A DNA stretch of 64,000 bases from Escherichia coli (GTDB lineage Bacteria; Pseudomonadota; Gammaproteobacteria; Enterobacterales; Enterobacteriaceae): NCBI RefSeq assembly GCF_045037415.1, contig NZ_CP173438.1. One strand, written 5' to 3'. Below are positions 36,269-61,512 of this stretch, piece by piece (the stretch's first letter is position 1; each line of letters starts with the position of its first letter). The translations under genes were made by a program, and so were the position numbers. Below the pieces are notes generated by a model. The model saw nothing but the letters and a program-made list of their open reading frames with translations, was not told the DNA's origin and did no database searches.

Positions 36269-36360
36269 GACACTGACTCAGACTAAAATAAGAGGCGGGT
36301 AGTCTAGTGCCGGGGCGCTCTCCCTGCAACCTTTACCCCCCTTTGGATAGAATATAATCG

Positions 36361-36942
36361 ATGAATTTTTTAGCTCACCTGCATTTAGCCCATCTCGCGG
36401 AAAGCTCGCTTTCCGGCAATTTACTGGCTGATTTCGTACGCGGAAATCCTGAAGAAAGTTTTCCGCCCGACGTCGTGGCTGGCATTCATATGCATCGGCG
36501 AATCGACGTATTAACCGACAATCTGCCAGAAGTCCGCGAAGCGCGGGAGTGGTTTCGTAATGAAACGCGCCGTGTCGCGCCTATTACGCTGGATGTGATG
36601 TGGGATCACTTTCTGTCCCGCCACTGGTCGCAGCTGTCGCCCGATTTTCCGCTACAGGAATTTACCTGTTATGCCCGGGAGCAAGTGATGACTATTCTTC
36701 CAGACTCACCGCCACGCTTTATCAATCTGAACAACTACTTATGGTCAGAGCAGTGGTTGGTGCGCTATCGCGATATGGATTTCATCCAGAGCGTGTTAAA
36801 CGGCATGGCAAGCCGTCGCCCACGTCTGGATGCCCTGCGTGACTCCTGGTACGATTTAGACGCCCATTACGATGCTCTCGAAACCCGCTTCTGGCAGTTT
36901 TATCCGCGGATGATGGAGCAGGCGTCACGCAAGGCGTTATAA
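36361..36942 (+). CDS. acpH: Acyl carrier protein phosphodiesterase
   Basis: 193 aa [28 protein letters not shown]; recognised AcpH (yajB). Confidence 0.9.
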
Positions 36943-36946
36943 GACG

Positions 36947-38761
36947 TTAATTCATCCACACCGTAGCCGAAATGGCAGGCAAAGCCAGAATCCCGTCCGT
37001 CAGTTGCCCGTGACCTTCTTTGCGTTGCCATTGCGCGACATTAAGCAACGGCGACGCGGGTAGCACCACTTCACAGGCTTCGCCACGGTTGATTGCCACC
37101 AGTACACGCTGCTGATTCAGCACGCGGACAAATACCACCACGTTATCTTCCGCATACAGCACCTGACAGCCGCCACGACGCAACGCCTGACTTTTCTTAC
37201 GCAGCGCAATCATTCGCTGGTACAGCGCGAATAACGCCGAATCCTGCTTTTCCACCTGCCAGGGGAACGGCTTACGGCAAAACGGATCGTTTTTGCCATC
37301 CAGTCCCACTTCATCACCGTAATAAATGCACGGTACACCAGGCCAGGTGAACAGCCAGACCACCGCCAGGGGCAGGCGCGCAACATCCCGACCGAGCAGC
37401 GTTTTAAATCGCGCAGTATCGTGGCTGTCGAGCTGATTAAACATACGTAATTGTTGTTGATGAGAAAGCCCTGCGCGGTAATTATCCATCCAGGCCATAC
37501 AGGTTTGGGCGTCAATTTGCTGCGGATCGTAAGAGATATCGGTGTTGGCAAGAAATCCCCACAACGGGAATGTGAAGCCGCGATAGTTCATGGCGGCATC
37601 TTCCACATCGGCCTGTAACCATTGCCGTGCATCGCCAAAATGTTCGCCGACAATATACGCATCCGGCTGGGTTTCTTTCGCCGCTTCGGTGATCCCGGCA
37701 ACGTGCTGCAAATTATTGCGCGCCCCACCCGCTTCCCCCAGCATATGCACCACATCCAGCCGCCAGCCATCCATATTCCACGGCGCTTTCAGCCAGTGGC
37801 GGACAATACTGTCTTCCCCGCGATAAATTTCATTCACCAGACTTTCCGACTGATAATCCAGCTTCGGCAAGCTGGCATAGCCCAGCCAGTCGAGCGCCGT
37901 GCCATCATCACTAAACGAGTACCAGTCACGCCAGGGTGATTCGGGGTTGTGACAAGCTCCCCCCGTGCCACGATTGTGCCTGTCAAACCAGGCATGGGAA
38001 TCGCCACTGTGGTTAAACACGCCGTCCAGCACCAGTCGTATTCCCAGCTGCTGCGTATTGTGTCGCAAACGCAGCAACGCCCCATCACCGCCAAACTGCG
38101 GATCGACATGGCGATAATCCTCGGTATCGTATTTATGCACGCTGGGAGCTTTAAACACCGGATTGAGATACAGCGCCGTCACGCCAAGTTTTTTCAGATA
38201 CGGCAGTTTTTCACTTATCCCGTCCAGATCGCCGCCATAGAACGTTGATCCGCCAGCCTGCGCCGTGACCGGTTCATCCCAGTCACGCAATATGATCTCT
38301 TGTCCGGCTGCGTGATGGTAATAGACATGATCCTGTTCAGCTTCACGAGGAAGATTACGGGCGAAACGATCAGGGAAGATCTGATAAAAAATCTGATCCG
38401 CAGCCCATTGTGGGCCGATATCCGGTACATCGATGGCAAACTGCTCCTGTCGTGCCGGCGGCATTCGGCTGAAGCCTTGCGGTGTAAACCAACGCTGGCG
38501 ATCGTGCCACAGCAATTTGAAACTATAACGCCGCCGAGGTTGTCCGCAGGAGAGCTCGATCGCCGCCCGCCATGCGGTGACGCCAGGCTGCGGCTGACTG
38601 CGCTGCTTATGCATCGGTACTGACATTTCTTCGTTATCGTGTTCTGTACGCAGCATAATGCGCTGCGGTGGGTCTTCGCCCGTCAGCCACAGTGTAATGA
38701 GCAGTTGATCTTTGCTTTGTTTAACAAATGGGGGCACCGGCAGATGCCATGCATTTAACAT
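36947..38761 (-). CDS. malZ: Maltodextrin glucosidase
   Basis: GH13 alpha-amylase family sequence (..[11 protein letters not shown].., ..GWRLDVVHM..); tandem ATG-ATG start, so 38764 is the alternative start; I took the second (604 aa). Confidence 0.9.
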
Positions 38762-38839
38762 CATAATTCCCCTGTGATGAAAATCTGATCACCTTGCCAT
38801 AGCCTAATGCAGGATCACTCATCATCTGAAGGATATTTG

Positions 38840-49979: not shown

Positions 49980-50006
49980 ATTGCAGTCACGGTGCACGTT
50001 GCTTAT

Positions 50007-50223
50007 TGCCGGATGCGGCGTGAACGCCTTATCCGGCCTACGGGACTGTTCATTTTGTAGGCCTGATAAGACACGCCAGTGTCGCATCAGGCATCGGAGC
50101 ACCGGGGGGTTGCCGCCACTGTGCGCGTTATTTGTTGCCGGATGCGGCGCGAGCGCCTTATCCGGCCTACCGGACGGCTCACTTTGTAGGCCTGATAAGA
50201 CGCGGCAAGCGTCGCATCAGGCA
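50007..50223. repeat. BIME cluster: four REP elements in two tandem REP pairs between araJ and mak
   Basis: TGCCGGATGCGGCG(T/C)GA(A/G)CGCCTTATCCGGCCTAC occurs twice and GTAGGCCTGATAAGAC(A/G)CG..GTCGCATCAGGCA occurs twice in alternating order. Confidence 0.9.
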
Positions 50224-50247
50224 TGATACGCCAATTGCCTGGGTTTT

Positions 50248-55655: not shown

Positions 55656-56465
55656 ATGGAAAAGAAAATCGGTTTTATTGGCTGCGGCAATATGGGAAAA
55701 GCCATTCTCGGCGGTCTGATTGCCAGCGGTCAGGTGCTTCCAGGGCAAATCTGGGTATATACCCCCTCCCCGGATAAAGTCACCGCCCTGCATGAACAGT
55801 TCGGCATCAACGCCGCAGAATCGGCGCAAGAAGTAGCGCAAATCGCCGACATCATTTTTGCCGCCGTTAAACCAGGCATCATGATTAAAGTGCTTAGCGA
55901 AATCACCTCCAGCCTGAATAAAGACTCTCTGGTCGTTTCTATTGCTGCAGGTATCACGCTCGACCAGCTTGCCCGCGCGCTGGGCCATGACCGGAAAATT
56001 ATCCGCGCCATGCCGAACACTCCCGCGCTGGTTAATGCCGGGATGACCTCCGTAACGCCAAACGCGCTGGTAACCCCAGAAGATACCGCTGATGTGCTGA
56101 ATATTTTCCGCTGCTTTGGCGAAGCGGAAGTGATTGCTGAGCCGATGATCCACCCGGTGGTCGGTGTGAGCGGTTCTTCGCCAGCCTACGTCTTTATGTT
56201 TATCGAAGCGATGGCCGACGCCGCCGTGCTGGGCGGGATGCCACGCGCCCAGGCGTATAAATTTGCCGCTCAGGCGGTAATGGGCTCCGCAAAAATGGTG
56301 CTGGAAACGGGAGAACATCCGGGAACACTGAAAGATATGGTCTGCTCACCGGGAGGCACCACCATTGAGGCGGTACGCGTACTGGAAGAGAAAGGCTTCC
56401 GTGCCGCAGTGATCGAAGCGATGACGAAGTGTATGGAAAAATCAGAAAAACTCAGCAAATCCTGA
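55656..56465 (+). CDS. proC: Pyrroline-5-carboxylate reductase
   Basis: ORF 55548..56465 trimmed to Met37 (269 aa) [21 protein letters not shown] (NADP-binding). Confidence 0.95.
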
Positions 56466-56481
56466 TGGCTTTTGCCGGACG

Positions 56482-57597
56482 TCAGGCCGCCACTTCGGTG
56501 CGGTTACGTCCGGCTTTCTTTGCTTTGTAGAGCGCCAAATCTGCCGATTTCAACCACTCGCGATAGTGACTCATTTGTGGATTCAGCGGCGCAACCCCCA
56601 CACTAATCCGTAAAGTTACCTGTGGCGTATTCGGCAAGCGTAACGTGTTTAGCCCTTCATGCACCCGTAACATGGCGGTGATGGCGCTCTCAGCTGGCGT
56701 ACCGGACATGATTACTGCAAACTCATCGCCGCCAAACCGACCAATCACATCGCTACCGCGCAGGGTAATTTGTAACTGTCGGGTAAGCGCCACAATCGCT
56801 TCATCACCCACATCATGGCCCCAGGTATCGTTGATGCTCTTGAAATGGTCGATATCGATAATCAGTAACGTTGCATCGCGATTATGCCGCCGACAGTTAT
56901 CAAATTCATTGCGTAACATAGTTTCCCAATGACGTCTGTTATACACGCCCGTCATACCGTCGCGGGTACTCATGACCTGCAACCTGCGTTTATGTTCCGC
57001 CAGTTTAGTCGCCGTCTGGTAGCTGACCCAGCCAAACAGCAGAGGATAAATGACAATAATGGGAAGGGAGAGCCACCATTCCAGCGGTGCGCTATTGAAC
57101 GACACGGTGATGCCCGTCAGTTCGAGGGTGACAAGGCAGGAAACCACCATCAACACCAGACCCGCAACAAACAGACGGGGGCCGCCTGCCCCCATCAAAT
57201 TCAGACACATAATCATCAACATCGCGGTGGAAGGCAGCACGTTTACGCCCATTACGCCTACCCACATTCCCGCTAATACTGCATCGGTTTTTAAGTTGTA
57301 AATTTCCCGGCTAAGCGGATCGACGGCCCTGCTCGCTATCTGCCAGGCTAAATGCGGCCAGACGAACGCCCAGCCGACCAACACCAGCCACCACCAGCCC
57401 GGCGGCGGGTGCGAAACCAGCGTTGAAGCAATCGGTAAGAACATGCCAGCCAGACCAACCGCGCGGGGTAGTCTGACGCGACGGGCGAAGCGCAGCCCGG
57501 ACCGCTGATGTTCGTTTTGAGGAGTTAAAGGAGGTTCCTCCCCATGCGCCGCCGCTTTTTTGAAAAAGTTTTCATCATTCATTATTTTTGGGAACAT
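56482..57597 (-). CDS. dgcC: Diguanylate cyclase DgcC (AdrA/YaiC)
   Basis: 371 aa; N-terminal multi-TM MASE2-like region; C-terminal GGDEF domain with RFGGDEFAV. Confidence 0.9.
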   Translation of the reverse strand: MFPKIMNDENFFKKAAAHGEEPPLTPQNEHQRSGLRFARRVRLPRAVGLAGMFLPIASTLVSHPPPGWWWLVLVGWAFVWPHLAWQIASRAVDPLSREIYNLKTDAVLAGMWVGVMGVNVLPSTAMLMIMCLNLMGAGGPRLFVAGLVLMVVSCLVTLELTGITVSFNSAPLEWWLSLPIIVIYPLLFGWVSYQTATKLAEHKRRLQVMSTRDGMTGVYNRRHWETMLRNEFDNCRRHNRDATLLIIDIDHFKSINDTWGHDVGDEAIVALTRQLQITLRGSDVIGRFGGDEFAVIMSGTPAESAITAMLRVHEGLNTLRLPNTPQVTLRISVGVAPLNPQMSHYREWLKSADLALYKAKKAGRNRTEVAA

Positions 57598-61471: not shown

Positions 61472-61477
61472 TATTCA

Positions 61478-61512
61478 AACGCCCGGTAATATTCTTATTG
61501 GGCGTTTTCAGT
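61478..61512 (+). terminator. Terminator-like hairpin after ddlA (overlaps yaiZ 3' end)
   Basis: AACGCCC..GGGCGTT stem followed by TTCAGTTTCTT, 7 nt past the ddlA stop. Confidence 0.55.

Follow-up and report, generated by a model that had tools for sequence, protein, structure and literature searches.

Two pairs of convergent genes meet almost stop codon to stop codon in the window analysed here, which is a stretch of 64,000 nucleotides of Escherichia coli DNA given as one strand. In the first pair, acpH (ACP phosphodiesterase) occupies positions 36361..36942 on the + strand and ends with TAA at 36940-36942, and it is faced by malZ (maltodextrin glucosidase; 36947..38764, - strand, stop 36947-36949), the spacer between the two stop codons being the 4 nt GACG (36943..36946). 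The second pair consists of proC (pyrroline-5-carboxylate reductase; 55656..56465, + strand, TGA 56463-56465) and the diguanylate cyclase gene dgcC, also called adrA (56482..57597, - strand, stop 56482-56484), with 16 nt between the stop codons (56466..56481). All four gene ends were taken from the list of open reading frames and from the RefSeq annotation. It was also observed that acpH is the lone plus-strand gene within a run of minus-strand genes.

Both gaps, reported by the original prediction as 4 and 16 bp, are exact in the window sequence, and the same gaps and gene ends are annotated in RefSeq for MG1655 and for SK1144, a strain identical to the window across the acpH-malZ query. A mis-called stop codon or gene end, hiding wider true gaps, has a negligible probability and was discarded because the protein ends are conserved: the C-terminus of AdrA (...GRNRTEVAA) is kept to the final residue across genera, the ends of AcpH and MalZ match across genera, and the RefSeq annotations of several strains concur on the gene ends.

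Tight convergent junctions such as these are common in E. coli and nothing unusual. We collected 26 convergent pairs, 10 from the window and 16 from two arbitrary 50-kb stretches of MG1655, and found gaps of at most 16 nt, or overlaps, in six of them, four of these six being overlaps. The gaps in the window are 127, 53, 53, 37, 4, 268, 80, 16, 23 and 58 nt; those in the first MG1655 stretch are -4, 69, 75, -38, 31, 44, -4 and 114 nt, and those in the second 39, 220, 35, -4, 43, 39, 195 and 56 nt.

Hairpin and Rho regions at proC/dgcC

Folding of the proC/dgcC junction on the proC strand, together with conservation, identified a putative terminator hairpin at 56474..56514 (+), in which GCCGGACGU and ACGUCCGGC enclose an inner stem. 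The stem begins 9 nt past the proC stop; spacer and dgcC stop together supply its 5' arm, and dgcC codons supply the remainder. The folding energy is -27.9 kcal/mol (z -5.2), and none of 200 shuffled sequences folds as well. Directly after the hairpin lies a T-rich tract, TTTCTTTGCTTTG (56515..56527, +), whose opposite strand carries the dgcC codons K-A-K-K; as RNA it gives a U tract with interruptions, UUUCUUUGCUUUG (56515-56527), and thus no pure U-run; conservation of the tract extends over 10 taxa. proC is therefore followed by both the stem-loop and the U tract of an intrinsic terminator, even if a consensus terminator scan gave no site at this junction and only folding detected the element, because the stem has internal loops. 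This long hairpin forms on the reverse (dgcC) strand as well, where AAAAG, and no U-run, comes after it.

The original prediction had assumed that there is no room for terminators between the genes of either pair. At proC/dgcC this assumption is misleading, since a strong and conserved hairpin with its T-run is present. This classical-looking terminator would sit in the 3' half of the spacer, the dgcC stop and the last ~10 dgcC codons, with the T-run covering the next four codons, and being encoded in this way it needs no intergenic space. Lying inside the end of dgcC, it would stop the proC mRNA a few tens of nucleotides within the opposing gene.

The gap between proC and dgcC measures 14-17 nt in nine other Enterobacteriaceae (E. 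ruysiae, E. fergusonii, four Citrobacter species, Salmonella, Lelliottia and Enterobacter), and the layout is ancient and conserved across the family. The first 8 nt of the spacer differ between genera and its last 8 nt begin the 5' arm of the terminator, so that the first half of the spacer is variable while the hairpin and T-run are almost invariant. Cells of the alignment corresponding to hairpin pairs are paired in 94% of cases, against 24-40% under shifted pairings, and a covariation check of the hairpin found zero compensatory double substitutions. The comparative support is thus that of sequence conservation and of the contrast with shifted pairings, and constraint on the protein may contribute to it. 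The last 16 dgcC codons have a synonymous uniformity of 0.83, compared with 0.62 elsewhere in the gene, and rank 4 among 145 windows. An Rfam search of both junctions gave nothing relevant, its single match being a chance miRNA far below threshold.

A 3' end of proC has been mapped by Term-seq at MG1655 404791 (-), with an average read count of 24,962 and the class 'primary proC, antisense dgcC' (Adams et al. 2021, PMC7815308, Supplementary file 1, M63 sheet). We verified the register of the Term-seq sequence strings against thrL, ppnP and ddlA; the equivalent position in the window is 56509 (+), which is 44 nt past the proC stop and 28 nt inside dgcC. We infer that this end is set by the hairpin. 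It should be considered, however, that termination at the T-run would be expected about 10 nt further downstream, the mapped position lying 5 nt into the outer stem's 3' arm, and the mapped end may be a product of trimming or endonucleolytic processing and not the termination point. The original interpretation is supported in part. Its inference that transcripts end inside the opposing gene holds for proC, and at acpH/malZ it is unavoidable, since a 3' UTR of more than 4 nt already overlaps; but at proC/dgcC the overlap of the mature transcripts should be short and bounded because a hairpin and T-run terminator is present there.

The window contains a third tight convergent pair, to which the original prediction made no reference, namely ddlA(+)/yaiZ(-), with 23 nt at 61472..61494 and a ddlA terminator hairpin (61478-61506) that runs into yaiZ. 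The likeness to proC/dgcC is close: in both cases a GC-rich hairpin with a T-run behind it starts just past the stop and enters the opposing coding sequence, and both have a strong Term-seq 3' end of the class 'primary, antisense'. The two differ in that the mapped end of ddlA lies 4-5 nt beyond the stem, as expected, whereas that of proC lies within the 3' arm of its stem and not in the T-run.

Concerning Rho, data obtained with its inhibitor bicyclomycin (BCM) show that the factor halts transcription on both strands near proC/dgcC (PMC7815308), the regions listed being 404769 (+), with a score of 6.6, and 404394 (-), with a score of 8.0 (Supplementary file 2 of the same work). Read-through in the dgcC sense rises 6.6-fold with bicyclomycin at 404769 (+); termination in this direction is bicyclomycin-sensitive and therefore Rho-dependent. 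Adjoining this region we found a C-rich, G-poor stretch in the dgcC read-through RNA, antisense to the proC 3' end (56365..56442, -; C/G 2.08). On the proC strand the Rho region peaks about 400 nt downstream, at 404394, which fits Rho acting on read-through. It is thus possible to propose that Rho would stop, about 400 nt downstream, those polymerases that pass the proC terminator, and that it would end dgcC-sense transcription near the end of the dgcC gene.

The acpH/malZ junction and its history

Between acpH and malZ neither scanning nor folding revealed a hairpin with a U tract. The consensus terminator scan gave nothing there, folding found no significant structure on either strand (z -0.09 and +0.07), and on neither strand is there a hairpin followed by a U tract within reach of the stop. 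Variable sites amount to 14/60 at the junction and 25/60 at the malZ 3' end, with a mean of 12/60, and the sequence of the junction is not conserved in the way expected of a selected element. The data sets of Adams 2021, SMRT-Cappable-seq and TERMITe gave neither 3' ends nor Rho regions for acpH or malZ, and malZ-acpH-queA is not among the three noncontiguous operons listed for E. coli.

The arrangement in related bacteria suggests how the junction may have arisen. In 63 of 80 other species acpH is followed by a peroxiredoxin (peroxiredoxin C) gene, and in the loci that we inspected this gene is followed by a terminator hairpin, which is strong in Salmonella. Gene and hairpin are both absent from the loci of four Escherichia species, from the window and from K-12, all of which have instead a gap of 4 nt whose bases vary (GGCT, GGTA, AACG). 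The common enterobacterial order is acpH, the peroxiredoxin C gene, a hairpin terminator and malZ facing back, and the Escherichia lineage has apparently lost the peroxiredoxin gene along with its terminator, leaving a scar of 4 nt. The junction therefore appears to be young, the loss being assigned to Escherichia by parsimony over the 80 species and not by a formal tree. About 21% of E. coli genomes, O157:H7 and other strains among them, carry an insert with an orphan gene at exactly this junction; homologues of the orphan gene are confined to E. coli, and no match to it was found in Pfam, PADLOC, PHROGs, NCBIfam or PDB sequences.

If the lost terminator was not replaced, as these data suggest, both transcripts run into the opposite gene, where Rho, acting on antisense RNA that is not translated, would presumably end them. 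A candidate Rho loading region, C-rich and G-poor, lies in the acpH read-through RNA, antisense to malZ (37099..37215, +). Its C/G ratio of 2.1-2.3 is about the 99th percentile of the window (2.15), with one 78-nt window just below this value and one above, while in the malZ read-through the ratio does not exceed 1.32 across the first 600 nt. As a guide to where Rho loads, this ratio is no more than a heuristic, although at proC/dgcC it concurs with the published Rho regions. We infer from this that Rho ends both the acpH and the malZ transcripts, and sequence composition favours such an ending more clearly for the acpH read-through than for that of malZ.

Possible transcriptional coupling and other readings

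The excludon concept is reportedly due to Sesto et al. 2013. In its convergent form it concerns convergent genes with no terminator between them and with overlapping 3' UTRs (PMC7154746, Fig. 3b), so that terminator-less convergent overlap is already a published idea, and malZ-acpH itself is present in the 2025 E. coli map. There it is one of 165 convergent excludons, called where RNA-seq coverage overlaps in 50% or more of 58 MG1655 transcriptomes (ExcludonFinder, PMC12288877), and it shares with the others the absence of an intergenic terminator and the mutual 3' overlap. Two further pairs of the window, ddlA-yaiZ and yaiW-yaiY, are in the same list. Overlap of transcripts is in fact documented by the literature at both of our junctions, by this call for malZ-acpH and by the proC end inside dgcC. 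If coupling of the excludon type were at work, antisense read-through would lower the partner through polymerase collision or RNase III cleavage of the duplex, so that acpH expression would fall when maltose induces malZ, and dgcC expression when proC is transcribed. We regard this as unlikely, although several observations agree with it. For 600 nt the malZ read-through over acpH encounters neither a hairpin and T-run nor a C-rich stretch, the proC 3' end within its stem could be a processing product, and E. coli offers a validated precedent in mscL/arfA, where RNase III is involved (PMC10070815). The members of that pair are convergent and overlap in 3' UTR and 3' coding sequence, and the antisense control with RNase III proposed for them is the mechanism that the original prediction had put forward. 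However, mscL/arfA has experimental support and is co-located across Gammaproteobacteria, whereas proC/dgcC, though conserved, has a terminator that bounds it, and acpH/malZ is particular to one lineage.

Further points weigh against coupling. The excludon call for malZ-acpH says little on function, because with a gap of 4 nt any 3' UTR scores as overlap; dgcC-proC is missing from the published E. coli core list, and the double-stranded-RNA validation with p19 proved unworkable for convergent excludons in the source study (PMC12288877). The class is defined by reciprocal expression and RNase III dependence, while acpH/malZ and proC/dgcC are known by overlap only. Moreover, the acpH/malZ junction is unconserved in sequence and is apparently a by-product of gene loss, not a conserved arrangement, it is interrupted by the insert in about 21% of E. 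coli, and at the other junction the hairpin and Rho both restrict read-through from proC. To our knowledge no functional link exists between the partners of either pair, and probably there is no selected coupling at either junction.

Overlapping bidirectional terminators between convergent E. coli genes are said to have been described by Ju, Li and Liu in 2019 with SEnd-seq. Applied to proC/dgcC, a collision model would have the hairpin pause polymerases in both transcripts, with head-on and trailing collisions causing release; such a model, and its prevalence in 'hundreds of E. coli genes', have been described (bioRxiv 10.1101/2022.10.23.513370). The shared hairpin-forming element, folding on the reverse strand as well and conserved across genera, would suit this model, but we consider it improbable. 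The hairpin of the dgcC strand is followed by AAAAG with no U-run, a mapped 3' end exists for proC only, and the class is described as Rho-independent, unlike what is found at proC/dgcC, where dgcC-sense termination nearby is Rho-dependent (score 6.6): an intrinsic-looking side is combined with a Rho-sensitive one. acpH/malZ differs from the class more simply, having no hairpin at all.

Our preferred reading, which we hold to be quite probable, is that both are ordinary compact tail-to-tail junctions with different histories and with no evidence of a dedicated regulatory device. A bolder reading, of the coupling kind, appears rather unlikely to us. In it, Escherichia lost the sole terminator downstream of malZ, and malZ RNA driven by MalT and maltose would run antisense across all of acpH, the coupling being inverse. 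If that were true, in Escherichia, though not in Salmonella, expression of the ACP phosphodiesterase would vary inversely with the use of maltodextrin, malZ read-through might extend into the queA-tgt-yajC-secDF operon, and the orphan-gene insert, with a hairpin of its own, would re-insulate acpH and malZ in about 21% of E. coli. At the other junction, the proC 3' end within its own stem is a possible RNase III cut of a proC/dgcC duplex.

Significance of the two junctions

On our preferred reading, as ordinary compact junctions, these sites matter little outside good annotation practice. They do indicate, however, that a very short convergent gap is not the same as an absent terminator, as at proC/dgcC and ddlA/yaiZ the terminators lie in the last codons of the neighbour, and those codons are therefore under two constraints. 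The same picture was apparently reached by two routes, as an ancient shared design at proC/dgcC and as a recent deletion scar at acpH/malZ. At the latter site three natural states could be compared to learn whether convergent overlap has a regulatory cost at all: Salmonella has the peroxiredoxin gene with a terminator, most E. coli have the scar of 4 nt, and O157:H7 and other strains carry the insert with the orphan gene.

Convergent junctions and the frequency of tight gaps

The window is E. coli chromosomal DNA in the orientation opposite to the MG1655 map. In it, acpH (36361-36942, plus strand; stop TAA 36940-36942) faces malZ (36947-38764, minus strand; stop 36947-36949) across the four bases GACG (36943-36946), while proC (plus strand; stop TGA 56463-56465) faces dgcC (adrA; 56482-57597, minus strand) with 16 bases between the stops. 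The same gaps are found in MG1655 (malZ 422518-424332 and acpH 424337-424918; dgcC 403703-404818 and proC 404835-405644), and the coordinates and gap sizes of the original prediction, 4 and 16 bp, are exact. Over a 1.3-kb query spanning acpH-malZ (36300-37600), several strains match the window at 100% identity, among them SK1144 and an O25b:H4-ST131 isolate, and K-12 matches it at about 95.6%.

To place these gaps, we surveyed every convergent pair of the window and of two 50-kb MG1655 stretches chosen arbitrarily; across this small sample of 26 pairs the gaps ran from -38 to 268 nt (median near 44), and roughly one pair in five was as tight as the two under study, which are therefore not unusual. 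The convergent araJ and mak, 268 nt apart in the window (49980-50247), are separated in the near-identical strain SK1144 by an IS1397 copy that the window does not have. A third tight pair, ddlA (plus strand) and yaiZ (minus strand), has a gap of 23 nt (61472-61494); the ddlA terminator hairpin (61478-61506) extends into yaiZ, the Term-seq 3' end of ddlA (MG1655 399790) lies 16 nt inside yaiZ and Rho regions are reported on both strands (PMC7815308). This pair is included in the ExcludonFinder list (PMC12288877).

A probable proC terminator within the end of dgcC

A simple terminator scan gave no match at proC/dgcC. When the proC strand was folded, GCCGGACGU (56474-56482) paired with ACGUCCGGC (56506-56514), with an inner stem and a UUCG loop between them, and a T-run, UUUCUUUGCUUUG, directly 3' of the hairpin. 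This fold has an energy of -27.9 kcal/mol (z = -5.2), which not one of 200 shuffled sequences equalled. The 5' arm combines the 3' half of the 16-nt spacer with the first base of the stop codon of dgcC, the other parts of the hairpin fall in the ten codons that end dgcC (...A-G-R-N-R-T-E-V-A-A-stop), and the four codons before these, K-A-K-K, are spanned by the T-run; a terminator-like element therefore exists at this junction, though outside the intergenic DNA. The claim that there is no room for terminators is thus wrong in spirit, since here, as at ddlA/yaiZ, the terminator is embedded in the last codons of the neighbour.

Published Term-seq and Rho data agree in substance with an embedded proC terminator. 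In the M63 sheet of Supplementary file 1 of Adams et al. 2021 (PMC7815308), a 3' end at 404791 (minus strand), with an average read count of 24,962, is classed as primary for proC and antisense to dgcC, and its flanking sequence is that of the proC hairpin; it is the dominant proC 3' end and is reported in the minimal-medium data set only. The listed strings, whose register we checked against thrL, ppnP and ddlA, comprise 50 nt upstream, the 3' end and 10 nt downstream. The proC 3' end accordingly falls at 56509 (plus strand), 44 nt past the proC stop, which places it 28 nt into dgcC, and the deduction that transcripts end within the opposing gene is right. This position is in the outer stem, on its 3' arm, some 10 nt before the T-run, unlike the ddlA end in the same table, which lies 4-5 nt beyond its stem (PMC7815308); trimming by an exonuclease, processing by an endonuclease or cleavage by RNase III may each be the cause. 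The bicyclomycin comparison gives one Rho-dependent region at 404769 (plus strand; dgcC sense, Rho score 6.6) and another at 404394 (minus strand; proC sense, about 400 nt beyond the terminator, Rho score 8.0) (PMC7815308). Both fit our C/G scan, in which the ratio is 2.08 immediately after dgcC ends and about 1.8 on the path of proC read-through. Past the dgcC stop, within the last proC codons (56425-56470, minus strand), UUUUU comes directly after a weak AU-rich hairpin, AUCAGGA..UUCUGAU; this may be a minor intrinsic stop for dgcC, but the published data point to Rho dependence here.

The arrangement is old, judging from its distribution: proC faces AdrA orthologues across 14-17 nt in E. 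ruysiae, E. fergusonii, four Citrobacter species, Salmonella, Lelliottia and Enterobacter, and at a Phytobacter locus proC is absent beside the AdrA orthologue. In the alignment the hairpin and T-run are almost invariant and the first half of the spacer is free to vary; 94% of the hairpin pair cells are paired, against 24-40% in shifted pairings, with one-sided wobble changes only and no compensatory double changes. Synonymous codon uniformity is 0.83 in the last 16 dgcC codons against 0.62 over its other codons, a rank of 4 among 145 windows, which is suggestive, if not strongly so, of a double constraint from protein and hairpin.

The acpH/malZ junction

At acpH/malZ, neither strand folded better than shuffled sequences (z = -0.09 and +0.07), and neither the terminator scan nor an Rfam search gave a match. 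The gap is always 4 nt in four Escherichia loci, the window and K-12, with differing bases, and the junction (14 of 60 sites variable) and the malZ 3' end (25 of 60) are among the most variable 60-nt windows (mean 12 of 60).

The junction is also unstable within E. coli. It is an insertion site (36943-36946): the match splits exactly at the malZ stop in 1,130 of 5,424 complete genomes, about the number taken to carry an insert, and all three split genomes that were opened (O157:H7 and two others; loci L002 7348-9000, L099 950-2600 and L100 1011-2600) have a low-GC (33-40%) insert of 1.65 kb. The insert's single orphan gene, read from the malZ strand, encodes 461-493 aa; the length differences are multiples of 4 aa, and a 12-bp tandem repeat in five copies lies inside the gene (L002 7914-7974). 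Its homologues are confined to E. coli, and searches of Pfam, PADLOC, PHROGs, NCBIfam and PDB sequences gave no match. Here a 20-nt gap separates acpH from the orphan gene facing it, and a 10-bp inverted repeat follows malZ.

A scan with AcpH across 80 species of Enterobacteriaceae, one genome each, found in 63 a gene for a 200-residue peroxiredoxin C (NF011576, 473 bits), presumably Salmonella tsaA, located 71-252 nt past acpH on the same strand (for example L013 3583-4468, Salmonella enterica subsp. arizonae; the other 62 are among loci L010-L085). The gene is highly conserved. In the ten loci that have malZ in the vicinity, two of them from Salmonella, malZ faces back from beyond the peroxiredoxin gene; the two genes are separated in Salmonella by a strong hairpin and T-run (z = -4.1), and a similar GC hairpin and T-run is visible 3' of the peroxiredoxin gene in several other such loci. 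The gene is absent from all four Escherichia loci; it is also absent from four scattered other lineages, whose gaps are -4, 10, 38 and 358 nt. The most parsimonious reading is that Escherichia lost the peroxiredoxin gene and, with it, the terminator serving malZ, and the 4-nt gap would be the scar of this loss.

Transcript ends and possible coupling

Neither acpH nor malZ has a 3' end or a Rho region listed in the Adams 2021, SMRT-Cappable-seq and TERMITe data; weak expression of both in LB and glucose media is the probable reason. In MG1655, malZ-acpH is one of the 165 convergent excludons of Sanmartin et al. 2025 (PMC12288877), whose calls rest on RNA-seq coverage that overlaps in 50% or more of 58 transcriptomes; with a 4-nt gap such a call is nearly automatic, and dsRNA validation failed for convergent pairs in that study. 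The acpH read-through RNA is C-rich and G-poor from +157 to +273 (C/G 2.1-2.3; 99th percentile of the window 2.15) and is therefore a plausible Rho substrate, while C/G does not exceed 1.32 for 600 nt of malZ read-through. If either direction matters, we can only infer from this composition that it would be induced malZ transcription crossing acpH. Between about 30800 and 40300, acpH is the sole plus-strand gene amid minus-strand secF, secD, yajC, tgt and queA, and malZ, proY and brnQ; if malZ transcription reads through, this topology would resemble a noncontiguous operon, and malZ-acpH-queA is absent from the three reported for E. coli. Strain AH21E028 (locus L003, about 470-690) has some 126 more bases between queA and acpH than the window.

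The suggestion that overlap couples expression corresponds to the published excludon concept (PMC7154746, Fig. 3b), for which mscL/arfA is a validated E. coli precedent (PMC10070815); collision termination is a competing model (bioRxiv 10.1101/2022.10.23.513370). At acpH/malZ a selected function is disfavoured, because the junction appears to be a deletion scar, is not conserved and is often interrupted. At proC/dgcC, which is not in the published excludon list (PMC12288877), the evidence points only to a short and bounded overlap, embedded terminators holding it to a few tens of nucleotides here and at ddlA/yaiZ. Both junctions are thus real but ordinary features, whose general mechanism is known and one of which was already catalogued; what is added here is the probable evolutionary origin of the acpH/malZ scar, and the embedded, conserved terminator of proC, whose 3' end is oddly placed.
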